Of a stretch of 64,000 bases of DNA, positions 3,800 through 20,760 are shown in pieces. The position numbers and the translations under genes are program-made. The stretch comes from a bacterium. GTDB taxonomy: Bacteria > Patescibacteriota > Minisyncoccia > Phycocordibacterales > Phycocordibacteraceae. The stretch covers positions 224,001-288,000 of the forward strand of contig JBBCGK010000001.1 of NCBI GenBank assembly GCA_037200965.1, written 5' to 3'. The first letter of the stretch is position 1. Every line of letters begins with the position of its first letter. The notes under the pieces were generated by a model. The model had not been told where the DNA came from and did no database searches. It worked only from the letters and a program-made list of their open reading frames with translations.

Positions 3800-5254
3800 T
3801 CACTCGGGCCTTTTGGTCAACAGCGTGCCTTCCGGCCCGTCATCCACACGATATCCCCTGTTTTCGAGTTCCGTCCGAAGCTCGTCCGCGCGTTCGAAAT
3901 CCTTCGCTTTGCGGGCCTCGTCCCGCCCGGAAAGGAGTTCCCGGACTTCCTCCGGAAGCTCCGCGGGCGGGAGATCCGCCGCCTCCGCCGCCCGAAGCCC
4001 GAGCAGGGCATCGGCATCCTTGAGGAGTCCCCATTTCTCCTCGGCGGAATAGTCGTCATCCCTGAGCGTCTCCCAGAGAATGCCGAGCGCCTGGGGAGTC
4101 GCAAGATCGTCGTACATCGCCGCGACGAAACGGTCGCGGGCTTCCGACTTTTCCGTCTTTCCTTTGGATTCTTCCGCTACCTCGCGCGCGATCCGCCCGA
4201 GGCGCCCGAGCGCTTCGGCGGCCCCGGCGAGCGCCTCCCAGGAGAAGGAGAGCTGGGTGCGATAGTGCGCCTGATGGAAAAAATACCGGAGCGCGAGCGG
4301 AGGATAGCCGCGTTCGGTTACGTCGGAGAGAAGGTAGGTGTTGCCGAGCGATTTCGAAATCTTTTCGCCCGCGATCATGAGGTGCGCGTTATGAAGCCAG
4401 TACCTGACGAACGTGCGGCCGCTCGCTCCTTCCGACTGCGCGATCTCGTTGTTGTGGTGCACGGGGATGTGCTCGATGCCGCCCGAGTGCACGTCGATCT
4501 CGATACCGAGGAGCGCCCGCGACATGGCGGAACATTCGATGCTCCACCCCGGATTTCCGCGGCCCCAGGGAGAATCCCATTGTTGCAGATCGCGCGCGGT
4601 CGCGCTTCGCCACAGCACGAAATCATGCGGGTTCTTTTTTCCGGCGACCGCCTTCACGCGCGCGCCCTCCCTGAGTTCCACGGCCATGATATTGCCGAGC
4701 GCGCCGTAGCGGGAGAATTTCTCCGTATCGAAATAGGCGCCGTCGGCAAGCCTATAGACGAGGCCTTTTTGTTCGAGCGTCTGGATCATCGCGATCTGCT
4801 CCTTTATGTATTCGGTCGCCCGCGGAAAGAAAATATGCCCGGTATCGACATTGAGCGCCCGGATATCCCCGAGATACCGCTTGGTATAGCGCTCGGCGAC
4901 TTCGGCGGGAGAAACCCTGTCTCGCCTGGCGCCCACGCTCATCTTGTCTTCGCCAAGATCGGCGTCGTCGACGAGGTGCCCGACATCCGTGATATTGATG
5001 ACGCGGCGGACATGATACCCGGCAAAAAGAAGCGTGCGGCCGATGGTGTCGGCGAACACGGCAGCCCGAAGGTTTCCGATATGCTGCGGGCCGTATACGG
5101 TAGGACCGCACGAATAGAGGCTTGCGGTGCCGGGCTTAAGCGGAACGAAGCGCTCTTTCTTTCCGGAAAGGGTGTTGGTGAAGAAGATATTCGCTTCCTG
5201 AGGAGAGCGCGTGTTCGTGTCTTTCGCGGGCGAGAAGAAGGAAAACCACGCCAT
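3800..5254 (-). CDS. cysS: cysteinyl-tRNA synthetase
   Basis: 484 aa; class I HIGN-like (GPTVYGPQHIGN) and KMSKS (KISKSLGN) motifs, CysRS-specific Zn-site cysteines. Confidence 0.9.
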   Translation of the reverse strand: MAWFSFFSPAKDTNTRSPQEANIFFTNTLSGKKERFVPLKPGTASLYSCGPTVYGPQHIGNLRAAVFADTIGRTLLFAGYHVRRVINITDVGHLVDDADLGEDKMSVGARRDRVSPAEVAERYTKRYLGDIRALNVDTGHIFFPRATEYIKEQIAMIQTLEQKGLVYRLADGAYFDTEKFSRYGALGNIMAVELREGARVKAVAGKKNPHDFVLWRSATARDLQQWDSPWGRGNPGWSIECSAMSRALLGIEIDVHSGGIEHIPVHHNNEIAQSEGASGRTFVRYWLHNAHLMIAGEKISKSLGNTYLLSDVTERGYPPLALRYFFHQAHYRTQLSFSWEALAGAAEALGRLGRIAREVAEESKGKTEKSEARDRFVAAMYDDLATPQALGILWETLRDDDYSAEEKWGLLKDADALLGLRAAEAADLPPAELPEEVRELLSGRDEARKAKDFERADELRTELENRGYRVDDGPEGTLLTKRPE

Positions 5255-8279: not shown

Positions 8280-8723
8280 ATGAAAGTCATATTGCTTAAG
8301 GACGTGCGGAAGATGGGCAGGGCGCACGAGACGATCGAGGTGTCCGACGGGCACGCGATCAATTTCCTCATCCCGCAGAAGCTCGCGGTTGCGGCGACGC
8401 CGGACGCGGCTCGCAGAGCCGAAGGATACAAGGCGAAGGGAGCGGTCGCCAAGGAAGTGCAGACGCACCTTCTCGAGCAGAATCTCGCGACCCTGGCCGA
8501 GGCCCGCATTGTGCTCAAGATGAAAGCCAACGAGCAAGGACACCTCTATAACGCCGTCGGCGAAGACGAGATTCTCGCCGCCGTCAAAGAGCAAGCGAAC
8601 GTCGAGCTCCCCGAAGACGTTATCCGCCTTGAGAAACCCATCAAGGAGCTTGGCACCTACGACATCCCGGTCTCTGCCGGAAAGGATTTCGGGCGTTTCA
8701 ATATTGTGGTTGAGGCGGAGTAA
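8280..8723 (+). CDS. rplI: 50S ribosomal protein L9
   Basis: MKVILLKDV... N-terminus and overall L9 pattern, 147 aa. Confidence 0.9.
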   Translation: MKVILLKDVRKMGRAHETIEVSDGHAINFLIPQKLAVAATPDAARRAEGYKAKGAVAKEVQTHLLEQNLATLAEARIVLKMKANEQGHLYNAVGEDEILAAVKEQANVELPEDVIRLEKPIKELGTYDIPVSAGKDFGRFNIVVEAE

Positions 8724-8791: not shown

Positions 8792-9037
8792 ATGATAAAA
8801 AGCGGTACGAAAAAGAACATTTCTTTTCTTGCGGTGGAGTTCGACCGCGAAGAAGACGGCCGCTGGATCGCGGAAATTCCCAAGCTCCGGGGAGTTATGG
8901 CATATGGCGTGACACGACGGGACGCGCTCCAGAAAGTGTATGCGGTCGCGCTACGCACGCTTGCGGACGGCGTGGAGCAAGGAGCTCTCTTCACTCCGGT
9001 ATCCCGGCTCTTCGGGCATGGAGTGGCGCGCCGTTAA
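8792..9037 (+). CDS. hicB: HicB-like antitoxin (UPF0150 family)
   Basis: 81 aa, HicB/UPF0150-like core (WIAEIPKLRGVMAYGVTRRDALQKV), overlaps and precedes hicA. Confidence 0.6.
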   Translation: MIKSGTKKNISFLAVEFDREEDGRWIAEIPKLRGVMAYGVTRRDALQKVYAVALRTLADGVEQGALFTPVSRLFGHGVARR

Positions 9038-9227
9038 AGCGGGACGGGTACTTCGGGCGCTTGGCGCGGGCGGGTGGCGTATAAAGCGCCAGCGGGGATC
9101 GCACAGAATACTCGCGAAACCGGGCCATGCCGACGTTACGTTCGCGTTCCATGACCGCGAAGAAATCGGCCCGAAAATGCTTGCGAAAATCGCCAAATAC
9201 ACCGGCCTTGCGCCTGATGATTTGTAG
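9018..9227 (+). CDS. hicA: HicA-family mRNA interferase toxin
   Basis: GWRIKRQRGSHRILAKPGH...FHDREEIGPKMLAKIAKYTGL matches HicA/YcfA signature; start set at internal Met overlapping hicB by 20 nt. Confidence 0.65.
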   Translation: MEWRAVKAGRVLRALGAGGWRIKRQRGSHRILAKPGHADVTFAFHDREEIGPKMLAKIAKYTGLAPDDL

Positions 9228-9320
9228 AGAAAATTTGACGAAGCCGCTTGCGTAGTTTACCTTCAAGCCAGTCGTTCCTGCGCGAAGCGTTTGCGCAGGC
9301 CAAGACAAAAGGAGACTACG

Positions 9321-9674
9321 ATGCCGCAGGTAAAGTCCTATGCGGGACGCAACATCCGGCTCACGCCGGAACAGCTCCGGAAACTCGAAGAGGTCTATGC
9401 TCACGGCAAGGGGGGTCTCGGAGATTCATTGTCGACTGCCGAAATCGCCGCGCTCTACGAGAGCACGCGCCTGAGTCCTTCACACCACGAATGGCGCATA
9501 TGCATACAGACAAAGGTCGTCGAGTTTGACGGAAGGGACTATATGGAATTCGCCATGATCGCCCGTGAATATAGCGAGGAGAAGAGTTTATGGCTTCTTA
9601 TCTATCAGTTCTCGGGCGCGCCCGAAGATCGGGGGTTCATCGACATCGAGAGCGAAGTTCTCGCGGCCGTGTAA
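9321..9674 (+). CDS. hypothetical protein
   Basis: 118 aa from Met with AGGAG RBS 8 nt upstream; no family recognised. Confidence 0.4.
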   Translation: MPQVKSYAGRNIRLTPEQLRKLEEVYAHGKGGLGDSLSTAEIAALYESTRLSPSHHEWRICIQTKVVEFDGRDYMEFAMIAREYSEEKSLWLLIYQFSGAPEDRGFIDIESEVLAAV

Positions 9675-9691
9675 GCGAACACCGCAAAACG

Positions 9692-9720
9692 AAAAGGCCC
9701 GGAGCGATCCGGGCCTTTTG
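9692..9720. terminator. bidirectional intrinsic terminator between convergent genes
   Basis: AAAAGGCCCGG-AGCGAT-CCGGGCCTTTTG: GC stem flanked by A-tract and T-tract. Confidence 0.55.
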
Positions 9721-9727
9721 TCTTTGT

Positions 9728-10000
9728 CTAGAGCACCGAAACGACTTTCTTGCGGATGATGCTGCCGTCAAAGCGCTTCTTGCGGCGTTCGGTGAAGGCG
9801 ACGGTACCGGTCGCCATCGAGAAGAGGGTATGATCCTTGCCGACGCGCACGTTCTGTCCCGCCTCGATCTTGGTGCCGCGCTGGCGGACGATGACCATGC
9901 CCGGACGCGCCTTGGAGCCGGCCGTAAGCTTGACGCCGAGGTATTTCGGATTCGAGTCGCGCAGGTTTTTTGTCGAGCCTCCGGCTTTTGTTGATGCCAT
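9728..10000 (-). CDS. rpmA: 50S ribosomal protein L27
   Basis: [24 protein letters not shown]...IVRQRGTK...GKDHTLF canonical L27. Confidence 0.9.
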
Positions 10001-10019: not shown

Positions 10020-10439
10020 ATGAATATAGCAGAATGGGGGCAAAGGGGCAAGGAAATGCTTGATCGGGGGCTCGGGCTCCTCGACCAGGTCCCGCGGGAT
10101 GTGCTCGTGGTAGCGATCGTCGTTCTTTCGGCTTCCGCGGCTTTCGGCCTTGGCTATCTCACGGGGAAAGACGCGGGGCGGGGAAGCGGTATATCCGTAA
10201 CCCAGATGCCGCTCACGGATTCGCTTCCGGCCGCAGCAGGGGCGACGAGCGAGGTATCGCCGCCTGCCCTACTGCCTGCGGGAGGGCAGTATGTGGCTTC
10301 GAAAACCGGCACCCGGTACTACCTGCCCTGGTGCGGGGGAGCGAGGACGATCAAAGACGAAAATAAGATATGGTTCGACTCGAAAGCGCAGGCCGAAGCA
10401 GCCGGCTATGCTCCTGCCGCAAACTGCAAGGGGATTTGA
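10020..10439 (+). CDS. membrane-anchored protein with C-terminal Cys-containing Ada-Zn-binding-like motif
   Basis: N-terminal TM helix; C-terminal YYLPWCGG...KIWFDSKAQAEAAGYAPAANCKG resembles the metal-binding YHxPxC...F.S...A..AG[FY]R.C motif. Confidence 0.4.
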   Translation: MNIAEWGQRGKEMLDRGLGLLDQVPRDVLVVAIVVLSASAAFGLGYLTGKDAGRGSGISVTQMPLTDSLPAAAGATSEVSPPALLPAGGQYVASKTGTRYYLPWCGGARTIKDENKIWFDSKAQAEAAGYAPAANCKGI

Positions 10440-10440
10440 T

Positions 10441-10845
10441 ATGAAAGCCTACGCCGGGTTTAAATTCAAGGAGGATTATAGCGATCGGGCATTCATAGAA
10501 AGCATCTGCCGCGCTATTGAAAGTGCGGGAATCAAGACGGTCGTGATGGTCAGGGACTACGAGGGATGGGGGCAGACACGTATCGCTCCCGGGGACATGA
10601 TGCCGATCGCGTTTCGCGCTATCGATGACTGCGACATTGTTATTATCGAGTTTTCGGAAAAAGGTACCGGTCTTGGCATCGAAGCAGGGTACGCCTATGC
10701 GAAAGGGAAGCCGGTGCTGGTCATCGCCCGGGAAGGCGCGGAGATATCGGAAACCCTGGAAGGCATCGCATCACGCGTCATGTTCTATCGGAAACCCGAA
10801 GACATACAACGATCCTTGGAAGACTCTGGTATCATGGACGCATGA
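10441..10845 (+). CDS. nucleoside 2-deoxyribosyltransferase-like protein
   Basis: 134 aa; Rossmann-like pattern DIVIIEFSEKGTGLGIEAGYAYAKGKPV typical of the N-deoxyribosyltransferase family; start at ATG 10441 with 4-nt overlap into the next gene. Confidence 0.5.
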   Translation: MKAYAGFKFKEDYSDRAFIESICRAIESAGIKTVVMVRDYEGWGQTRIAPGDMMPIAFRAIDDCDIVIIEFSEKGTGLGIEAGYAYAKGKPVLVIAREGAEISETLEGIASRVMFYRKPEDIQRSLEDSGIMDA

Positions 10846-11441
10846 TCGCCGTGGACGCCGAAATGAGCGGGCTTGATTTCGAGAAGCATTCGATACTCTC
10901 GATCGGCGCGCTCGATCTCGATGAGCCGGAGAACCGTTTTTACGGGGAATGCCGTGCGTGGGACGGCGCGCATATCGAGACGGATGCGCTCGTCGTAAAC
11001 GGCTTTACGGTTACCGAGGCCACGGATCCCAGAAAGCAGGGGGAGGGCGAACTTGTGCAGAGCTTCATAGCATGGTCGCTCTCGATCGCCGAACGGACGC
11101 TTGGCGGACAGAATTGCGCTTTCGACCGCATGTTCATCGAGGCCGCGTGCAGGCGCAGCGGCATCGAGTGTCCGTTCGCGCACCGCGTCATCGATGCCCA
11201 TAGCCTGACCTGGCTGCATATGCTGAAGCGGGGGCTTACGCCGCCCATCGACGAGAAGCATCGCCATTCGGCTATCAACCTTACGTTCGCTCTTTCGTAT
11301 TGCGGCGTTCCGGAAGAACCGAAACCACACAACGCGCTTACCGGAGCACTCTGCCATGCGGAAGTGATATCCCGTATCGCGTATACTAGGAAACTGCTGC
11401 CGGAATTCGCGCAGTACGACATACCATGGCTCACGAACTGA
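10842..11441 (+). CDS. DEDDh-family 3'-5' exonuclease (DnaQ-like)
   Basis: Exo I motif IAVDAEMSGL, Exo II region, Exo III H-x4-D (HNALTGALCHAEV). Confidence 0.7.
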   Translation: MIAVDAEMSGLDFEKHSILSIGALDLDEPENRFYGECRAWDGAHIETDALVVNGFTVTEATDPRKQGEGELVQSFIAWSLSIAERTLGGQNCAFDRMFIEAACRRSGIECPFAHRVIDAHSLTWLHMLKRGLTPPIDEKHRHSAINLTFALSYCGVPEEPKPHNALTGALCHAEVISRIAYTRKLLPEFAQYDIPWLTN

Positions 11442-12175
11442 ACCCTCCCGCCTCCGGCGGCCAAGCGCACCCCCTGCTTACGCGCCTCATGACCGAGGGG
11501 CATGCGACGATGCCGCACAAGGACGACCGGCCTCCGCTCGTCTGCAAGCCCGCGCGCATCGAGCCGTGGCGTATCTTCCGGATTATGTCCGAGTTCGTCG
11601 AAGGATTCGAGATATTGAAGCGCTACGGGCTCGCCGCGAGCATCTTCGGGACCGCGCGCGCGAGCTTCGAGCATCCGGTCTATCAGGAAGCGGAAGAACT
11701 TGCGGCGAAGCTCGCGAAGCGCGGTTTCGCCATTATCACGGGCGGGAGCAAGGGCGTGATGGAGGCAGGTAATAAGGGTGCATTCCAGGCGGGAGGCGCT
11801 TCCGTAGGGCTCAACATCCACTTGCCGGAAGGCCAAGGCGACAACGCCTATCTTACCGAAAAGTTCGAATTCGAACATTTCTTCGTGCGCAAGGTGATGC
11901 TCACGTTCGCGTCCGAGGTCTATATTTATTTCCCCGGAGGTTTCGGCACCTGGAACGAATTTTTCGAGATCGTGACGCTTATACAGACCAAGAAGATCAG
12001 GCGCATCCCCGTCGTGCTGGTCGGCAAAGCATATTGGACTCCGCTTACGGAGCTTATCCGCGCGCACCTTTACAAGGAGCACAAGGCGATAGACGAGAAG
12101 GACATGGATATTTACAAAGTGGTGGACTCGGTCGACGAGGCGTACGACTATATCGTGAACCACGTCACCTGCTAG
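11426..12175 (+). CDS. LOG-family protein (nucleotide 5'-monophosphate N-glycosidase / lysine-decarboxylase-like fold)
   Basis: ITGGSKGVMEAGNKGA...PGGFGTWNEFFEIVTLIQT, the TIGR00730/LOG signature; true start may be internal Met (about 11510 or 11585). Confidence 0.75.
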   Translation: MAHELNPPASGGQAHPLLTRLMTEGHATMPHKDDRPPLVCKPARIEPWRIFRIMSEFVEGFEILKRYGLAASIFGTARASFEHPVYQEAEELAAKLAKRGFAIITGGSKGVMEAGNKGAFQAGGASVGLNIHLPEGQGDNAYLTEKFEFEHFFVRKVMLTFASEVYIYFPGGFGTWNEFFEIVTLIQTKKIRRIPVVLVGKAYWTPLTELIRAHLYKEHKAIDEKDMDIYKVVDSVDEAYDYIVNHVTC

Positions 12176-12176
12176 T

Positions 12177-12329
12177 ATGTCTCTCGACTACAGCCAGAAG
12201 CGCCTGGTCTCCGCCCCGTTTCGCCGGAAAGGGAAGGGGAGCCAGCGCCTTCGCCTCTACGCCTTCCTTACGGGCCTTCTGAGCACTCTGGTTTCGCTTG
12301 CGACCGTCATAGTTACGCTTGAAAAATAG
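12177..12329 (+). CDS. small single-TM peptide (50 aa), paralog 1
   Basis: MSLDYSQKRLVSAPFRRKGKGSQRLRLYAFLTGLLSTLVSLATVIVTLEK; not in ORF track (<60 aa); conserved motif YAF.TG..STL.SL shared with the next ORF. Confidence 0.35.
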   Translation: MSLDYSQKRLVSAPFRRKGKGSQRLRLYAFLTGLLSTLVSLATVIVTLEK

Positions 12330-13051: not shown

Positions 13052-13483
13052 TTATCTGAAGTTCGCCCACGGACAGTCCTTTGTTTCCGTACCTGGCACT
13101 AGTTCCTGCGCGCCAATTACGAGCGCGTGGTCCTTCCAGAATTCGATTGTTTCCGTTGAGTCGCGACCGTCGCCGAAAGGGAACGGGGGAGTTAGACGTC
13201 CGATATAGGTCGTGAAGATATCGTATTCGTTATCTCCCGTCTTATCCATGCGAAGTACAATAGTAGTCGCGGGGCTGGGTTCATGGCCGCGCACAAAACG
13301 GCTATACCGGTCGCGATTGGGACGCTTCGCATAAAAGATATCGTCTGCTTCCGTCGTTTCTACGCAGTCCTGAATACCGATTGCTCTTCCGAATTCTATT
13401 TCAAGGCGCGGCGACGGTCCATGCGCGACAACCTGCGGCAGCGCCTCTTTCACAAGCTCCAGGAGATCCGGAACATCCTTCAA
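13052..13483 (-). CDS. hypothetical protein
   Basis: 143-aa ORF, no recognisable family. Confidence 0.35.
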   Translation of the reverse strand: MKDVPDLLELVKEALPQVVAHGPSPRLEIEFGRAIGIQDCVETTEADDIFYAKRPNRDRYSRFVRGHEPSPATTIVLRMDKTGDNEYDIFTTYIGRLTPPFPFGDGRDSTETIEFWKDHALVIGAQELVPGTETKDCPWANFR

Positions 13484-13692: not shown

Positions 13693-13830
13693 CTAGTCGC
13701 CCCACAAAATTGCGCCTTCGGAATTTATGGTTGTGACGGATACTTTTCCGACGGCATCGGTTAGCCGCACTTCCCCGGGCAGGGGAACTTTCCCGGTCAG
13801 GGGAGCGAAGACGATCTCAGAAAAATATGA
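13693..13830 (-). pseudogene. orphan 3' fragment of a type IV pilin gene (duplicate of 15921..16058)
   Basis: about 125 nt at about 85 percent identity to the 3' end of the pilin gene at 15921..16379; encodes ...PLTGKVPLPGEVRLTDAVGKVSVTTINSEGAILWGD; upstream part of the ORF is unrelated low-GC sequence. Confidence 0.6.
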
Positions 13831-13864
13831 AGAAGAGAGAAGTCCCCTGCCCTCCGCGAAACAT

Positions 13865-14401
13865 ATGAGCCTGACATTGCTAGTTGGTGTTATATTGGCC
13901 TGGATTATGGGAGTCTTTTCGCCTGAGGAGTATTTCGGCGCTATCAGGAACAATATACGCGGGAAACGCTACTTATACGCAACAATCAGGATATTTGCCG
14001 GTCTTGGCTCGCTGCTTATCTTTATTGGCGCGATTGTCGGAGCCTTCCATGCTTTTAACATATTTAACATACAAGTACACCAGAATAGAGTCGAGCTAGA
14101 CTCTTACTATCGCAAAACTACTGAATTAACGAGTACGGATGGCACCTATACGACGACATTTCGAATCTTTGTTCACACTCCTCCATACTGGACTCCTCCA
14201 AATCCGAAAAATCTGGAAGCAGGTTTTAACTTTTACTGGCTAGGTAACCCTCAGGCTGAATGCAGTGACCCAGCCTCAAAAGGATTCTCAGAAAAATATG
14301 CAGGCTCTTATTCATCCAGTACCAGGGAATACGAGATGACGTGCAGGACCTATAGCCCGGTTCTCGACAACGGGCGGCTGATCATGATCAGGGAAAACTA
14401 G
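13865..14401 (+). CDS. hypothetical membrane protein (low-GC cassette)
   Basis: 178 aa from internal Met; two N-terminal TM helices; region is markedly AT-richer than flanks. Confidence 0.35.
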   Translation: MSLTLLVGVILAWIMGVFSPEEYFGAIRNNIRGKRYLYATIRIFAGLGSLLIFIGAIVGAFHAFNIFNIQVHQNRVELDSYYRKTTELTSTDGTYTTTFRIFVHTPPYWTPPNPKNLEAGFNFYWLGNPQAECSDPASKGFSEKYAGSYSSSTREYEMTCRTYSPVLDNGRLIMIREN

Positions 14402-14417: not shown

Positions 14418-14792
14418 TTAATACCCTGATACTGATCGCTGGGCCGTTTCGTAGTCGAAATCGCATAGTCGGATATCCCCTTCATACGCAGACAAGAGCG
14501 TGGCTGGCGTGCTGTCCGGGCTCTGTGCGCGCTTGAAGGTCGCAAAGGACAGCGCTATGTCCTGGGTCATCGAATTGCAGGAGGTACCGCTGTCATCCTC
14601 CACAAGGCACCAGTACTGCATGGCAGATGTGAATTTTGCCGCGGCTTTGACCGTACAGGCACGGTAGTCATTGTCTATATGGGCCCGCTTCTGGGAGTTG
14701 GCGGTATTCACATACCAACTGATCACCAAGATGACACAGATCAGTATCGCACCGTTGAGAACAAATATCTTATGAGTATTGAACCAGTTCAT
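14418..14792 (-). CDS. hypothetical membrane-anchored Cys-containing protein (low-GC cassette)
   Basis: start at Met21 (MNWFNTHKIFV...), one TM helix, several Cys. Confidence 0.35.
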   Translation of the reverse strand: MNWFNTHKIFVLNGAILICVILVISWYVNTANSQKRAHIDNDYRACTVKAAAKFTSAMQYWCLVEDDSGTSCNSMTQDIALSFATFKRAQSPDSTPATLLSAYEGDIRLCDFDYETAQRSVSGY

Positions 14793-14973
14793 AACGCAAG
14801 GTTGTTTTAGTACCAATAAACGCCCCAGAGCACCGCCCCGAATGCCAGACAACCTTGCGGGAAGCCAACACCGGGACGGTGCTTTGGGTGCAAGGTTGTC
14901 CTGTATGGGGGGTGTTCGTTATGAGCCTACTTCCCTCCCCTGGAGGGGTCAAGGGAGGGAACTGCACGGAACG

Positions 14974-15010: not shown

Positions 15011-15190
15011 TTATTTCCGCTTTCCCTGCTCCATCACTTTACGCTGTTCCGCATTTGCCTCCCGCAATACCTGGCGCACCACTTTAACCTTGTCGGCAGA
15101 GGATCGTGAAAAGAACGCGGAGAAGTCGTTGTCCGCATGTCCCTTTTTCGCGCCGGACGAGCCAAAAAAGCCTCTTATGAAGTTGGTCAT
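15011..15190 (-). CDS. small basic protein (59 aa) translationally coupled to zeta-toxin-like gene
   Basis: ATG overlaps the zeta-like stop in an ATGA arrangement; MTNFIRGFFGSSGAKKGHADNDFSAFFSRSSADKVKVVRQVLREANAEQRKVMEQGKRK; no internal stops; below ORF-track size cutoff. Confidence 0.3.
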   Translation of the reverse strand: MTNFIRGFFGSSGAKKGHADNDFSAFFSRSSADKVKVVRQVLREANAEQRKVMEQGKRK

Positions 15191-15933
15191 ATAAGTACTG
15201 TATCTAGTTCTTCCACAGAGTAGCGTCCCCTGGTAAGGCGGTCAAGTTCCACGGAACTAACGTTCAAGTGAACATCCTCAGTGCCGTCTTCATAGTCTTT
15301 TATGAGCACGTTGAGCTCGACCGCCTTGCCAAACTGCTCTTTGACGGCCACGACATTTTCACGCGCACCCTTGAAAGAACGTATGAAGACATCCCTGGAC
15401 ACATGCCGTGACTCTGTCACCTCGCGAACTTTAGTAAACTCCCAGGCCTTCACCGGATCCTGAAATACGAACCATATTTCAACTAAGCGGCTCCGGGACA
15501 GCGAACGGCTGATATTCTCCGGGGCATTTCCGTAAGCGAACGTACCATCAAGTATGCAGTTGAGGTTCTTTTCGAGGGCATAGTCGTATAAGATGTTCAC
15601 CCCTTTATTCGCGGCGCTTTGGAAGAGGTGGGCATTTGCACCTGTATATCCGTCACAGAGCATGCGTATGTCGTCCGCATCTATGCGTATCGGCATATCC
15701 TTAAACCGTCTCATAAATCCTTTTGACACCTCAGTTTTGCCCGCCCCCGGCGAACCGGCCATAAACAGCGAAACCGGCTTATTCACGGGGCGACACGCGT
15801 CGGGGTGCGCGAACTTCTCTATGATTTCTTTTCTGTGGCTCTTAACAAAAGCAATCGCATCCCGTTCAATACGAGTTTCTTCTTCGGTCATCCCGGATAT
15901 CCTAACACTCTGTAGGCCTGTCACTTTCCCCAT
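15187..15933 (-). CDS. zeta-toxin-family P-loop kinase-like protein
   Basis: Walker A MAGSPGAGKTEV followed by IDADDIRMLCDGY (zeta/PezT D.D..R....Y pattern); 248 aa; overlaps pilin stop by 13 nt. Confidence 0.6.
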   Translation of the reverse strand: MGKVTGLQSVRISGMTEEETRIERDAIAFVKSHRKEIIEKFAHPDACRPVNKPVSLFMAGSPGAGKTEVSKGFMRRFKDMPIRIDADDIRMLCDGYTGANAHLFQSAANKGVNILYDYALEKNLNCILDGTFAYGNAPENISRSLSRSRLVEIWFVFQDPVKAWEFTKVREVTESRHVSRDVFIRSFKGARENVVAVKEQFGKAVELNVLIKDYEDGTEDVHLNVSSVELDRLTRGRYSVEELDTVLI

Positions 15934-16379
15934 AAAACCGCACCTTCTGAATTGATGGCTGTAATGGATATCTTCCCGGCGGCATCGGTTAACCGCACTT
16001 CCCCGGGCAGGGAAACTTTCCCGGTCAGGGGAGAGAAGACGACTTCGGCAAGTCCGGAGCGCAGGGCATCCGACTTCCCTTCCAGGATAATGTCTTCGCC
16101 CTCATGCCGTGAGAAGTAGCTGCCGCCCTCGAAAATGACGAAGCCGGAATCTCCGACGTAGACGCCATGCGCGCTGGGGCCGGTACAAACTTTCGCGGCA
16201 CACACGCCGTTAAGCGCTTGCGAGCGGGCATGCAGAAGCGCGATCCGAATCGTATCCTCGTCGTTTCTCTGAAGTGTCCTTTGATAGCTCTCGAGTCCGA
16301 CGATAAGCCCGATCGCGGAGATCGTGGCAACAAGCGCTATAACGATTAACAGTTCGACGAGCGTGAAGCCGCGAGGCAT
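15921..16379 (-). CDS. type IV pilin / pseudopilin with prepilin N-terminal cleavage-methylation motif
   Basis: MPRGFTLVELLIVIALVATI class III signal (G|FTLVELL), 152 aa. Confidence 0.75.
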   Translation of the reverse strand: MPRGFTLVELLIVIALVATISAIGLIVGLESYQRTLQRNDEDTIRIALLHARSQALNGVCAAKVCTGPSAHGVYVGDSGFVIFEGGSYFSRHEGEDIILEGKSDALRSGLAEVVFSPLTGKVSLPGEVRLTDAAGKISITAINSEGAVLWGK

Positions 16380-16381
16380 GG

Positions 16382-17446
16382 TTAGGGCGCAAGGTTCTGT
16401 GTGATGCCGTAGATCGGCGTGATTATCGCGAGCGCGACGAATCCCACGATAAGGCCCATCACGATCATGAGTACGGGCTCGATAAGGACCGCGATGCTCT
16501 TTGAGAGTTCGTCGAGCTCTTCCTCGTAGAAGTCCGCGCAGTACAAGAGGCTTTCCGAAAGCGAGCCGGTCGATTCTCCGACCGAAAGCATCTGCGCGAG
16601 CATCGGCGGGAACAGGAGCGGCTCAAGCGCGAACGCCGCCGAAACCTTTTGTCCGGTCGACACGAACTCCGCCATCTCCCCGCATGCTTTCCGGTATGCG
16701 CCGCTCCTTGTCCCGAGCGCCGCAAGTTCGACTGCGCGCACGACGCCTACCCCGCTCCCCAAGAGCGTCCCGAGCGTACGGGCCAGGCTCGCGACCGCGT
16801 ATTCCCGAAAGAGCGTTCCCAGAAGCGGAATCCGCAGGAGCGCGCGTCCGGCCGCAAGCCTTATGGACGGCACGCGAAGCAAGAGAACCGCCGCAGCCAC
16901 AACCGCCATGAGGGCGAGCAGGATATATAGCCCATAGCGCGCGAATGACTCGCTGAGAGAAATAAGAAGCCTGGTCGAGAGCGGAAGCGCTGCATGAAAG
17001 CCCTTGAATACCGGAATGATCTTCGGAAACACGTAGAGCGCAAGCAGGGTCGTGATGCCGAGCGTCGCCGCCACGATGATCGCAGGATACAGAAGCGCTC
17101 CTATGACTTTCCTTCGGAGTGCGCGCTCCTTCTTGATCGACTGCGAAAACCGCTCAAGATGCTCCGGAAGCGACCCGCTCGTCTCCCCCACTTCGACCAG
17201 ATGTACGCCGAGATCGCCGAATACGGAGCGGAACGCGGCGAGACCCGCGGAAAGAGGGCGTCCGGCCGCGACCGTCTCCCGGAGCGTATGCAGGATATGG
17301 GATGAGGAATGCGTCCGCGCCTCTTCGCCAAGAAGCGAGAGCGCGGCGACTATCGGCACGCCCGATCGGAGCATGAGCGCGAGGCGTTTCGCGAAGAGCA
17401 TCTGCTCTTCCTTGCCGAAGAGGAGGAGATACGGCCGCTTATGCAT
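16382..17446 (-). CDS. type II secretion / type IV pilus platform protein (GspF/PilC family)
   Basis: two T2SSF-like repeats, three TM segments, 354 aa. Confidence 0.8.
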   Translation of the reverse strand: MHKRPYLLLFGKEEQMLFAKRLALMLRSGVPIVAALSLLGEEARTHSSSHILHTLRETVAAGRPLSAGLAAFRSVFGDLGVHLVEVGETSGSLPEHLERFSQSIKKERALRRKVIGALLYPAIIVAATLGITTLLALYVFPKIIPVFKGFHAALPLSTRLLISLSESFARYGLYILLALMAVVAAAVLLLRVPSIRLAAGRALLRIPLLGTLFREYAVASLARTLGTLLGSGVGVVRAVELAALGTRSGAYRKACGEMAEFVSTGQKVSAAFALEPLLFPPMLAQMLSVGESTGSLSESLLYCADFYEEELDELSKSIAVLIEPVLMIVMGLIVGFVALAIITPIYGITQNLAP

Positions 17447-18602
17447 GGCGCATGCGGACTACCTCCTCGATCGTTGTCACGCCCTTCCATGCCTTGCCGA
17501 ACCCGTCACGGTGCATGGGAAGCATTCCGGCGGCCGCGGAAAGCTCGCGAAGCTCGTCAAGGGATGCCTTGCGGAGCACCGCCTCGCGAAGCTCCGGCGT
17601 CATTGCAAGCACTTCGAATATCCCCGTGCGGCCGCGATACCCCGTGCCTGCGCAGCTCTCACAGCCTCTTCCCCGGAAACTCGCAGCCTCGTCCGGCAAT
17701 CCTTCCGGAGAAAAGACATGCGCGAGGCTTTCCCGCTCCGCGCTTGTGAGCTCGCGACGCTCCCGGCAGTCGGCGCATATCGTGCGCACCAGCCGCTGCG
17801 CAATTACGAGACTTACGGTCGAAGCCAGAAGATATGGCTCTACCTTCATATCGAGAAGACGCGGGATCGCCGTCGGCGCATCGTTCGTATGAAGGGTCGA
17901 AAGAAGCAGATGGCCCGTGAGTGCGACATTGGTCGCCATTCCCGCAGTCTCGATATCCCGTATCTCCCCCACCATGATGACGTCGGGATCCTGGCGAAGC
18001 ATGCTCCTGAGCCCGTTTCCGAATGTAAGGCCGGTGCGCGCGTTCGCCTGTATCTGGTTGATGCCCGGGATCGAATATTCGACCGGATCCTCGATCGTAA
18101 GGATGTTCACTTCCCTTCTATTAAGAAGAGCAATGAGCGCATAGAGAGTCGAGGTCTTTCCGCTTCCGGTCGGTCCCGTGACGAGAATCATGCCGTGAGG
18201 CCGGGCAAGCGCCGTCTTGATGAGATCCGCGTGCGCGGTGGAAAACCCGAGACTTTCAAGCGGGCCCGGTTCCCTCGGAGCAAGGAGGCGCAGGACCGCG
18301 TTCTCTCCGTAATAGGTTGGCGCGATCGATACGCGGACATCGATCTGCCCTGACCTGCCGCCAAAGACAAAACGTCCGTCCTGCGCCGCCTGGTGCTCGT
18401 CGGTACGGAGTCCCGCAAGTATCTTTACGCGCGCGATAAGCTCGCCATGGAGCGTGCTCGGGACTTCGTGAGCGTCAGCCAGTTCCCCATCCACGCGGAA
18501 ACGGACGACTAGCTTTTCCTTCTGCGGATCGAGATGTATATCTGAAGATCCGCGCGCGTGCGCGGAAGCGAGCAGCTCCTCGACCAAGGCGATCGCCGAC
18601 AT
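17439..18602 (-). CDS. type II/IV secretion ATPase (GspE/PilB family, short form)
   Basis: Walker A GPTGSGKTST, Asp box LRQDPDVIMVGEIRD, His box LVLSTLHTNDA, tetracysteine CADC...CESC. Confidence 0.85.
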   Translation of the reverse strand: MSAIALVEELLASAHARGSSDIHLDPQKEKLVVRFRVDGELADAHEVPSTLHGELIARVKILAGLRTDEHQAAQDGRFVFGGRSGQIDVRVSIAPTYYGENAVLRLLAPREPGPLESLGFSTAHADLIKTALARPHGMILVTGPTGSGKTSTLYALIALLNRREVNILTIEDPVEYSIPGINQIQANARTGLTFGNGLRSMLRQDPDVIMVGEIRDIETAGMATNVALTGHLLLSTLHTNDAPTAIPRLLDMKVEPYLLASTVSLVIAQRLVRTICADCRERRELTSAERESLAHVFSPEGLPDEAASFRGRGCESCAGTGYRGRTGIFEVLAMTPELREAVLRKASLDELRELSAAAGMLPMHRDGFGKAWKGVTTIEEVVRMRHA

Positions 18603-19596: not shown

Positions 19597-19658
19597 GATG
19601 AAAAAATAATACCATGCGCGTTGCGGCAAAGCCCAAGCGCGGGTAGGATGCATGGAAA

Positions 19659-19739
19659 GCCGGGGTGGCGAAATGGTATACGCAAGGGATTCAAAACCCC
19701 TCGCCGCAAGGCATGAGAGTTCAAGTCTCTCCCCCGGCA
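19659..19739 (+). tRNA. tRNA-Leu (anticodon CAA)
   Basis: acceptor GCCGGGG/CCCCGGC, D-arm with GG, anticodon loop TTCAAAA, long variable arm, T-arm GAGAG-TTCAAGT-CTCTC, discriminator A; no encoded CCA. Confidence 0.75.
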
Positions 19740-19765
19740 CAGCGTGGATAGTGGATAATGGTAGG

Positions 19766-20089
19766 ATGGTGGGTATGAAAGAATTAATGGAACGTATCGC
19801 GACGGTCTGGGAATGCGACCCTTCCCGGTACCCGGAACTTGCAGGCATGGATACTACCGAAAGGAAGAACTTTCTGATCAAACATTCGGTCCTCCACATA
19901 ACCAAGACCGCAGGCAAGCTCGCCGCCCTCTGCGAGGACTACGACCATACCAAACAGACCTCTCCGGAAGCGGAGGAAAAACTGAAGGCGGCGTCCGTAA
20001 AGATGTTCATCAACGCGCTCAAGCTCGCCGAAGAGGCAGGGTTAAGCGCGGACGAATTGCTTGAGCGCGCGCCCGGATACGTAAAATAA
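19766..20089 (+). CDS. MazG-like nucleotide pyrophosphohydrolase family protein (putative)
   Basis: about 107 aa all-helical; weak resemblance to small MazG/NTP-PPase domain; start could be 19766 or 19775. Confidence 0.35.
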   Translation: MVGMKELMERIATVWECDPSRYPELAGMDTTERKNFLIKHSVLHITKTAGKLAALCEDYDHTKQTSPEAEEKLKAASVKMFINALKLAEEAGLSADELLERAPGYVK

Positions 20090-20760
20090 TGACGCTTCGC
20101 AACATCCAATTAGATAAGAAAACCCTCAAGAAGTTCGTCGCGTCGGGCTTCATCGCGTGGAAAGAGAAACCGGTCACCTTCAAGTCGGGCCTCAGCTCGC
20201 ATGTCTATGTAGGCGGTCGCGACGATCTCACGCATGACCCGGAACTCTTGCTTGCCATAGGCGGCGCCCTCGCGAAGCGCGTGAAGGCGCTCACTCCAAA
20301 AGGCTTCCTCCCTTGCCTCATCGGCATCCCTTCCGCTGGCAGGACGCTCGCGCAGGCGGCGGCGATGCACCCTAAAGGCAAATTCGCGTTTGAAATATTG
20401 CGCGATAGGAAGAAAGCGTACGGAGCCCATAAGAAATGGGTCGACGGCAGGCCGCAGCCGAAACGGTTTTTCTATTTCACCATCGACAACACCATAACGG
20501 ATGGCGCTTCAAAATATGAGGCGTTCGAACGCCTCTGCGAAGACGGATACCCGGCAAAACGCATGAGCCATCTCATTCTCGTTGATCGCGAAGAGGGCGG
20601 CGCCGAAAAGCTCCGGGCCAGAGGCTACCGTGTCGAGACCGTCTGGAACCTTACCGACATCGTGCGCGCCTTGGTCGCGCATAAAATATGGACTCAAAAA
20701 CGCGGCGCCATAGCGCTCGCGGAAATCGCTGAAAACAGGAAAGCGGTCAGCGCGGTCTAA
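20089..20760 (+). CDS. phosphoribosyltransferase, orotate-PRTase-like
   Basis: FKSGLSSHVYVGGRDDL...DPELL N-terminal OPRT-like pattern and type I PRT loop FYFTIDNTITDGAS; 1-nt overlap with previous gene. Confidence 0.55.
   Translation: MTLRNIQLDKKTLKKFVASGFIAWKEKPVTFKSGLSSHVYVGGRDDLTHDPELLLAIGGALAKRVKALTPKGFLPCLIGIPSAGRTLAQAAAMHPKGKFAFEILRDRKKAYGAHKKWVDGRPQPKRFFYFTIDNTITDGASKYEAFERLCEDGYPAKRMSHLILVDREEGGAEKLRARGYRVETVWNLTDIVRALVAHKIWTQKRGAIALAEIAENRKAVSAV

Follow-up and report, generated by a model that had tools for sequence, protein, structure and literature searches.

An exonuclease–LOG gene pair of Paceibacteria, joined in one lineage by an inserted gene of the nucleoside 2-deoxyribosyltransferase superfamily

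Introduction

DEDDh exonucleases work from 3' ends and liberate nucleoside 5'-monophosphates, and nucleotides of this class are cleaved by LOG- and DNPH1-type enzymes. According to the descriptions of their PDB entries, DNPH1 is a 2'-deoxynucleoside 5'-phosphate N-hydrolase, and MilB and BcmB are CMP N-glycosidases. Type-II LOGs, which are not lysine decarboxylases, hydrolyse AMP, yielding adenine together with ribose 5-phosphate (PMC5379747). In the C. glutamicum enzyme Cg1261, the catalytic residues are Arg155 and Glu178, activity also requires Lys156 and Thr175, and Asp177, a type-II LOG hallmark, contacts the adenine ring, with a D177A mutation nearly abolishing AMP hydrolysis (PMC5379747). 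The alpha1 helix builds the hexamer and separates type II from type I LOGs (PMC5379747). Parcubacteria are reported to be without genes for most nucleotide biosynthesis, and one curated Parcubacteria genome contains few purine-metabolism enzymes together with type IV pili and ComEC (PMC5220378). Here we describe three overlapping genes, A, B and C, predicted to encode enzymes of these kinds, in a 64,000-nucleotide stretch of contig JBBCGK010000001.1 (hereafter the window) from a bacterium of the Paceibacteria/Kaiserbacteria type within the candidate phyla radiation (CPR)/Patescibacteria. B and C belong to a conserved exonuclease–LOG arrangement, and A is an insertion confined to this lineage.

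The architecture of the region and the insertion of A are observed directly in the genomes compared. The enzymology and the link between the enzymes are predicted, as is, at a probability of roughly 55%, an ordinary role of the operon in nucleotide turnover and salvage. Starting at 3' ends, the exonuclease would trim RNA, DNA or oligonucleotides to nucleoside 5'-monophosphates, LOG would hydrolyse purine nucleoside monophosphates (NMPs) to free base together with ribose 5-phosphate, and the inserted A would add a second N-glycosidase whose specificity would differ, deoxy- or pyrimidine nucleotides being its probable substrates. In combination, the three enzymes would let an organism whose group is reported to be without most nucleotide biosynthesis turn over and salvage nucleotides. 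This role is favoured because B is expected to yield the class of nucleotides that C, and probably A, would use as substrates, and because of the gaps in nucleotide biosynthesis in Parcubacteria. Pilus and type II secretion system (T2SS) genes are encoded near the operon in the window.

A lineage-specific insertion into a conserved operon

The genes in question are listed below by position in the window.

10020-10439, + strand: Ada-like upstream gene, 139 amino acids (aa), with a stop 1 nt before A, a hydrophobic N-terminal segment, a low-complexity linker and a C-terminal two-Cys domain of ~45 aa
10441-10845, + strand: gene A, 134 aa, nucleoside 2-deoxyribosyltransferase superfamily, lineage-specific insertion
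10823-10845, + strand: 3' end of A homologous to the spacer of the related locus L090, downstream edge of the insertion (boundaries approximate)
10842-11441, + strand: gene B, 199 aa, predicted RNase T-like DEDDh-family 3'-5' exonuclease
11426-12175, + strand: gene C, 249 aa, predicted type-IIa (hexameric) LOG-family nucleoside 5'-monophosphate phosphoribohydrolase
11951-11956, + strand: codons TGG AAC (Trp176-Asn177) of C, within the PGGxGTxxE motif
12177-12329, + strand: small open reading frame (ORF), 50 aa, with a hydrophobic C-terminal half and a start 1 nt past the C stop

A, B and C are co-directional ORFs; A and B share 4 nt (ATGA) and B and C share 16 nt, as an earlier sequence-only reading of this DNA had described, and for two further assemblies of this organism (L001 and L002) an independent gene caller placed the boundaries identically. 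The 16-nt overlap between exonuclease and LOG recurs in the nearest relatives, L090-L092, and in L014, L029, L039, L066 and L071, and the first residues of C can be aligned in L091 and L092, which makes its upstream start credible. The gene caller also recognised the 50-aa ORF in L001 and L002, a gene of 50 aa occupies the same position in L090, and a Pfam search with it gave no match; it is possibly the last gene of the operon. A promoter and terminator scan within the operon gave nothing above chance, the weak terminator-like sites all lying inside gene C, and an Rfam scan of the window found tRNAs only, with no riboswitch upstream of the operon. The gene layout most likely represents a co-transcribed, translationally coupled operon. 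The B protein is recorded at NCBI as WDN10_01400, a hypothetical protein.

A scan of one genome per species gave at least 597 exonuclease homologues, of which the best 80 loci were examined. In 53 of the 77 loci with enough sequence, the next gene downstream of the exonuclease, on the same strand, is LOG; the gap between the two, measured by longest ORF at 58 loci, is an overlap in 28, 0-50 nt in 21 and more than 50 nt in nine. Upstream, the Ada-like gene precedes the exonuclease on the same strand in 54 of 68 related loci, and the genes for ribosomal proteins L27 (rpmA, opposite strand) and L9 (rplI) are present in 61 and 55 of the 68, respectively. The conserved unit is thus an Ada/'sunset'-like membrane protein, an exonuclease and a LOG in a housekeeping block by rplI and rpmA, and not a mobile island. 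The Ada-like protein scores 23.6 bits against Pfam Ada_Zn_binding (gathering score 23) and 19.5 bits, below the cut-off of 27, against the NCBIfam 'sunset' model; the NCBIfam 'sunset domain variant' models of ribosomal proteins L17 and L20 match it very weakly. Its transmembrane segment is read from the sequence only, and its C-terminal ~45 residues (YYLPWCGG...AAGYAPAANCKG) contain just two Cys. A literature search on the 'sunset domain' found nothing useful.

Gene A is a lineage-specific, clean insertion between the Ada-like gene and the exonuclease gene, and its reading frame ran on into the old spacer. This is concluded from its absence in relatives, the homology of its junction to the L090 spacer, its lower GC content and the unrelated contexts of its homologues. 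Neither tblastn (E<=1e-4) nor an A-family hidden Markov model (HMM; E<=10) found A in 80 species-level loci and the three nearest relatives, and at E<=10 the sole match of the HMM across 84 loci was the window's own contig. In L090-L092, whose exonucleases are 81%, 71% and 70% identical to B, the Ada-like gene is followed by exonuclease and LOG with no A, and in L091 and L092 the Ada-like gene overlaps the exonuclease start by 4 nt. The L090 spacer between these genes (3957-4000) carries a perfect 10-bp inverted repeat, ATTACAAGGT-CGA-ACCTTGTAAT, in place of A; no copy of this hairpin, which might be an attenuator or a scar left by a gain or loss, occurs anywhere in the window. At the junction, the window reads TCTGGTATCATGGACGC-ATG and the L090 spacer reads TCTGGTATCATAGGTGC-ATG, the last ~20 nt of A being homologous to the stretch of spacer that immediately precedes the exonuclease start. 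Because the stop codon of A became joined to the former spacer, the coupling with the exonuclease was not lost. GC and GC at third codon positions are 0.533 and 0.62 in A, compared with 0.587 and 0.71 in B and 0.583 and 0.77 in C.

In eight other contexts, no homologue of A adjoins an exonuclease or a LOG. The neighbours there include HIT and phosphoribosyltransferase genes, a 23S-rRNA-IVP protein, BipA and a radical-SAM enzyme, an FGGY kinase with a metallo-beta-lactamase-fold protein, an NYN-domain protein and MOFRL, and for the upstream partner proteins of the A homologues in L119, L120 and L085, no relevant counterpart was found near the operon. A conserved three-gene neighbourhood, as had been proposed, is therefore not what these genomes contain: A is missing from all 83 related loci, the nearest relatives included. 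As for the operon as a unit, the exonuclease–LOG pair holds up, A is a one-off addition to it, and the operon itself is larger than first described. No meaningful flanking repeats that could be scars of a mobile element were found around A. A phage origin of A was also considered and is unsupported, a scan of viral contigs having given partial, distant matches to the core motif only.

Insertions have occurred repeatedly in the slot upstream of the exonuclease in Paceibacteria, where other genomes have genes unrelated to A. Judged by eye, an antisense uracil-DNA glycosylase-like gene lies between the Ada-like gene and the exonuclease in L072, L018 and L030, a polytopic membrane protein of ~265 aa resembling YihY/BrkB occupies the slot in one clade (L019, L043 and L027), and a response regulator and unknowns are found there elsewhere. 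A second lineage-specific insertion in the block (8792-9227 and 9291-9674) is a HicB-like/HicA toxin-antitoxin pair, with a 127-aa ORF after it, between rplI (8280-8723) and rpmA (9728-10000, - strand), as concluded from L090 and L092, where rpmA directly follows rplI. HicA matches its Pfam family at 6.8e-14, and the strongest terminator-like hairpin (12 bp) lies at 9692-9719.

Gene A resembles nucleotide N-hydrolases

A passes the PF05014 model marginally (29.7 bits against a gathering score of 28.8) and belongs to a small family of 69 clusters, most of which carry a precomputed PF05014 match. Despite the marginal score, its predicted structure (an AlphaFold2 model with a pLDDT of 92.8) clearly has the Rossmann-like fold of the nucleoside 2-deoxyribosyltransferases (NDTs). 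The top 42 Foldseek matches of the model are all MilB, BcmB, DNPH1/Rcl or NDT; MilB is the best (E 7e-7, template-modelling (TM) score 0.81), followed by DNPH1 and BcmB, with the true deoxyribosyltransferases ranking lower. By sequence, the closest PDB entries are Rcl and BcmB (6e-4). Glu70 of A, in the segment IIEFS, aligns to the Glu of the Rcl VVAEVT segment, which we take to be the catalytic nucleophile of Rcl/DNPH1. This Glu is kept in at least 90% of the A family and lies in a nearly invariant family motif, EFSEKGxGLGIEAGYA. At the domain level, A also has a weak TIR match.

The nearest structures and sequences are nucleotide hydrolases, so A is more likely a nucleotide N-hydrolase of the MilB/BcmB/DNPH1 type than the base-swapping transferase first suggested. 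The family calls for the three proteins stand nonetheless (PF05014 for A, the DEDDh profile and fold for B and TIGR00730 for C), as does the observation that A and C are both Rossmann-like and of families that cleave nucleotide N-glycosidic bonds.

Gene B is an RNase T-like protein with a modified active site

B falls below the gathering score of Pfam RNase_T (20 bits against 24), and it matches the PADLOC DEDDh profile at 2.4e-13; this profile and the NCBIfam 3'-5' exonuclease models cover its full length. A profile built from 28 B homologues finds RNase T first in the PDB (1.4e-7). The AlphaFold2 model of B (pLDDT 95.7) likewise has RNase T as its top Foldseek match in the PDB (E 3.8e-11, TM ~0.68-0.71), and among the ~190 matches at E<=1e-3, those listed are DEDD-type nucleases, with the Cas2-associated DnaQ domain, Cap18, 3'hExo and Orn ranking next.

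The first two active-site motifs are intact. D5 and E7 of ExoI, which HMMER aligns to D-V-E of RNase T, are invariant in the 28 aligned homologues and kept in 137 and 135, respectively, of 143 wider representatives; D95 of ExoII, in the segment QNCAFD, is invariant and aligned with HNANFD of RNase T. In ExoIII, B reads H163-NALT-G168, with Gly at the last canonical DEDDh Asp, so that the H-x4-D pattern is absent. Since this signature is incomplete, membership of B in the superfamily rests on its fold and its other motifs. The segment PHNALTGA is present in 117 of 120 close homologues, and at position 168, 93 of the 143 aligned wider representatives have Gly and 40 have Asp, with both states interspersed by rank. 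The assignment of an Asp-to-Gly change draws on the motif pattern, on a MAFFT alignment that places H163 opposite the ExoIII His of RNase T, on an ungapped reading against the epsilon subunit of DNA polymerase III and on the alternation of Gly and Asp. As for aligning ExoIII to solved structures, phmmer with the C-terminal half of B found nothing, and an hhalign comparison with RNase T and epsilon ended before ExoIII. D5, E7, D95, H163 and E174 are nearly invariant among the 143 representatives, and these retained residues suggest that B is still catalytic, with a modified metal site. B ends ~25 residues past the ExoIII helix, and position 172 is mostly Glu in the family and His in the subclade of the window.

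Homologues of B number 2245, are about 60-70% identical to it and come overwhelmingly from Paceibacterota, Kaiserbacteria, Adlerbacteria and similar metagenome-assembled genomes (MAGs). An exhaustive search of 1.84 billion representatives gave 229 family members at E<=1e-30, and the family appears to be largely confined to Paceibacterota/CPR, all named matches and genome records being CPR. A few members have tandem duplications of the exonuclease domain (P0196, 386 aa, whose first copy looks degenerate, and P0253, 399 aa), and P0237 (321 aa) has a C-terminal extension of ~130 aa. No LOG or NDT fusions were noticed in the long family proteins inspected, whose extra regions were not searched. 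The family offers a natural experiment on how dispensable the last DEDDh Asp is.

Gene C is a type-IIa LOG with an altered base-binding position

By its sequence matches, C is unambiguously assigned to the type-IIa LOGs. It scores 131.8 bits against NCBIfam TIGR00730 (cut-off 96.35) and 97.3 bits against Pfam Lysine_decarbox (threshold 27), and it matches PDB entries 5WQ3 (Cg1261, CgLOGII) at 2.4e-54 and 1WEK (T. thermophilus TT1465) at 9e-52, nearly over its full length. Residues 47-64 (PWRIFRIMSEFVEGFEIL) align with the alpha1 bundle helix of Cg1261 (46-64) and are preceded by a disordered N-terminal region. The motifs FFVRK (152-156) and PGGFGTWNE (170-178) align residue for residue and carry the same numbering as in Cg1261. 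A weak match to PADLOC PsyrA was also found (7.7e-7).

Among the 59 related LOGs examined, the WNE triplet of the second motif occurs only in this organism's contigs, L001 and L002. LDE, MDE or IDE is found in 56 of the 59, including those of L090-L092, and one sequence has no motif match. Trp176-Asn177 is not an assembly error, since L001 and L002, assembled independently, and the MAG-derived window all encode it. Asn177 may alter the base specificity of C, and its coincidence with the gain of a second N-glycosidase gene is suggestive as a single observation. Two origins of the change can be drawn up. One is a compensated -1/+1 frameshift within 5 nt, from a hypothetical ancestor ACC CTG GAC GAA to ACC TGG AAC GAA, and the other is three point substitutions; L090 reads ACC CTC GAC GAG, and the relatives do not separate the two routes.

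Weighing the proposed function

Several points weigh against a salvage role. At the level of the enzymes, C has Asn at the adenine-binding position whose mutation to Ala nearly inactivates Cg1261, and B has Gly (G168) in place of the canonical fourth acidic residue, which puts its predicted catalysis in doubt. LOG turnover of plain AMP is slow and requires long incubation (PMC5379747), and the true LOG substrates may be modified nucleotides. At the level of the genome, in ~31% of related species the exonuclease is followed by other genes (judged by eye, these resemble SPFH/band-7, methyltransferase and NUDIX genes), adjacency in streamlined genomes can be inherited synteny and not a pathway, and the promiscuity of the slot may mean that the position of A is accidental. 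The scavenging route suggested for the three genes thus keeps its coherent biochemical logic and loses the conserved three-gene unit on which it had been built.

The main rival, which is possible and which we consider somewhat unlikely, is that B is the RNase T/oligoribonuclease-type enzyme of the clade, serving tRNA or rRNA 3' maturation or nanoRNA removal, with LOG and A as unrelated neighbours brought there by inherited order or chance insertion. RNase T is indeed closest to B in sequence and fold, the block stands beside rplI and rpmA in 55-61 of 68 loci, and core functions typically show the kind of conservation seen in this family, whose identity across the group is ~60-70%; the ~31% of loci without LOG after the exonuclease and the promiscuous insertion slot fit this account as well. 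Against it, LOG, where present, overlaps the exonuclease or lies within 50 nt of it in 49 of 58 loci, whereas the upstream regions are often interrupted, and this tight downstream coupling next to a frequently interrupted upstream side suggests selection for co-expression of exonuclease and LOG. The products of B would also be the substrate class of C.

A more far-reaching proposal is that the exonuclease–LOG pair, its exonuclease a DEDDh variant in which the fourth acidic residue has mostly been lost, is a dedicated and hitherto undescribed catabolic module found throughout Paceibacteria, which would convert scavenged RNA or DNA to bases and ribose 5-phosphate in a group reported to be without most nucleotide biosynthesis. 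Upstream of it there would often be a membrane protein whose 'sunset' domain may bind nucleic acids. In this genome, the gain of A as a second N-glycosidase and the replacement of Asp177 by Asn in the base-binding pocket of LOG, shifting or broadening its base specificity, would have re-tuned the module. We hold this to be unlikely, and prefer the plainer role in nucleotide turnover and salvage.

It is also unlikely that B is the replicative proofreading subunit, that is, an equivalent of the polymerase III epsilon subunit, in a neighbourhood unconnected with nucleotide salvage. JGI labels B homologues 'DNA polymerase III epsilon subunit-like', NCBIfam gives weak DnaQ-type matches and PHROG gives 'DNA polymerase exonuclease subunit' at 1.1e-10, and the ExoIII segment of B, HNALTGALCHAEVI, resembles a segment that we take to be HGALLDAQILAEVY in E. 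coli epsilon (an ungapped reading by eye, the two not being in register in MAFFT). However, the equivalog models score far below their cut-offs (PRK06309 12.6 against 245 bits, PRK06063 16.3 against 389 bits), RNase T is the better match, B has Gly at the metal-binding Asp corresponding to epsilon D167, and no replication genes are adjacent in the window or in L090-L092. B is accordingly not recognisable as epsilon, the housekeeping assignment that had been named as counting against the three-gene proposal.

Very unlikely is the defence or nucleotide-signal module put forward as an alternative in the sequence-only reading, in which SLOG/NDT-fold proteins would sense or degrade signalling nucleotides with a DEDDh nuclease as effector or trimmer, as in Cap18 of the cyclic-oligonucleotide-based antiphage signalling system (CBASS) and in Cas2-DEDDh. 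The PADLOC matches in its favour are at the domain level only: B matches the Cas-associated DEDDh profile at 2.4e-13 and, at 3.4e-10, the CBASS 'Effector exonuclease', C weakly matches PsyrA (7.7e-7) and A weakly matches TIR. These, the Foldseek matches of B to Cap18 and the Cas2-DEDDh DnaQ domain, and the nearby HicAB pair and zeta-toxin-like gene are outweighed by a fixed chromosomal position in a ribosomal-protein block across dozens of species, by an operon and flanks free of any cyclase, CD-NTase, Cas, sensor or effector partner in the window and L090-L092, by a near-universal exonuclease whose presence and ~60-70% identity across the group contrast with the patchiness of defence genes, and by the fact that RNase T outscores the defence nucleases for B and that C is a canonical type-II LOG (2.4e-54 to Cg1261).

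Other features of the window

A pair of ORFs further downstream had been linked to the same theme of nucleotide metabolism as MazG-like and orotate phosphoribosyltransferase (OPRT)-like, and this description holds for its second member only. The ORF at 20089-20760 (223 aa) is divergent and OPRT-like (PDB 2WNS, 1.4e-11; no Pfam model fires), and the 'MazG-like' ORF at 19766-20089 gave no Pfam, PDB or meaningful PHROG match. Its longest form (19652-20089) overlaps a tRNA-Leu gene (19659-19740), so its real start must be downstream, near 19766. GC content, 0.59 over the window as a whole, falls to 0.51-0.53 between 12 and 16 kb and to 0.48 between 24 and 26 kb. Within the first of these dips are several ORFs without a Pfam match (13052-13483, 13727-14401 and 14418-14852) and a zeta-toxin/AAA_33-like gene (15187-15933, - strand), after which come a pilin-like gene and T2SSF/T2SSE genes (15921-18602, - strand).

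Comparison with known systems

All three proteins are members or variants of known enzyme superfamilies, and the three-gene module arose through an accidental insertion in a single lineage. A literature search returned nothing useful on a CPR exonuclease/LOG salvage link or on details of Rv2179c, and by that search the exonuclease–LOG coupling and the Gly-for-Asp exonuclease variant appear to be undescribed so far, an incremental novelty. If the coupling is functional, it would give bacterial type-II LOGs a physiological role beyond plant-associated cytokinin production, and it would supply a concrete step in nucleic-acid recycling or scavenging by ultra-small CPR bacteria that largely do without nucleotide biosynthesis.

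For A, the nearest described systems are DNPH1/Rcl, MilB and BcmB. They have the same fold (Foldseek E ~1e-6, TM up to 0.81), and as in A their central strand ends in a conserved Glu followed by a Gly-rich loop like S-x-G-x-G-x-E-x-G. Identity is just 16-23%, however, and A is shorter (134 aa). Where Rcl has its N-terminal phosphate loop, presumably G-S-I-R-G-G, A has A-G/I-F/K-F-K-E-D.

For B, the nearest is RNase T of E. coli and P. aeruginosa (PDB 3NGY, 3V9U and 2F96), which is alike in fold, in its single domain of ~200 aa, and in having the D-x-E of ExoI, the Asp of ExoII, an x-D-T/S motif and the His of ExoIII. B differs from RNase T and from other DEDDh exonucleases (the DnaQ domain of Cas2-DEDDh, 8H18; Cap18, 7T2S; oligoribonuclease) in sharing only ~20% identity with them. 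It departs from the DEDDh signature in the last Asp, which is Gly in B and in about two-thirds of the family representatives, and it carries extra family-specific invariant residues, namely E36, C37, W40 and H120.

For C, the nearest are Cg1261 and TT1465, which share the disordered N-terminal region, the alpha1 hexamer helix and PGGxGTxxE, and C has Arg155, Lys156, Thr175, Glu178, Phe152 and Phe153 of Cg1261 at identical numbering. In contrast to both, C has Trp176-Asn177 instead of Leu-Asp, and its gene is translationally coupled to an exonuclease gene. A functional analogue in nucleotide catabolism is PpnN/YgdH, which shares the LOG-like domain and the reaction class that takes an NMP to base and ribose 5-phosphate; C is not a member of that family, as it scores 26.6 bits against the NCBIfam PpnN cut-off of 450, over a short stretch, and has none of the extra domains of PpnN.

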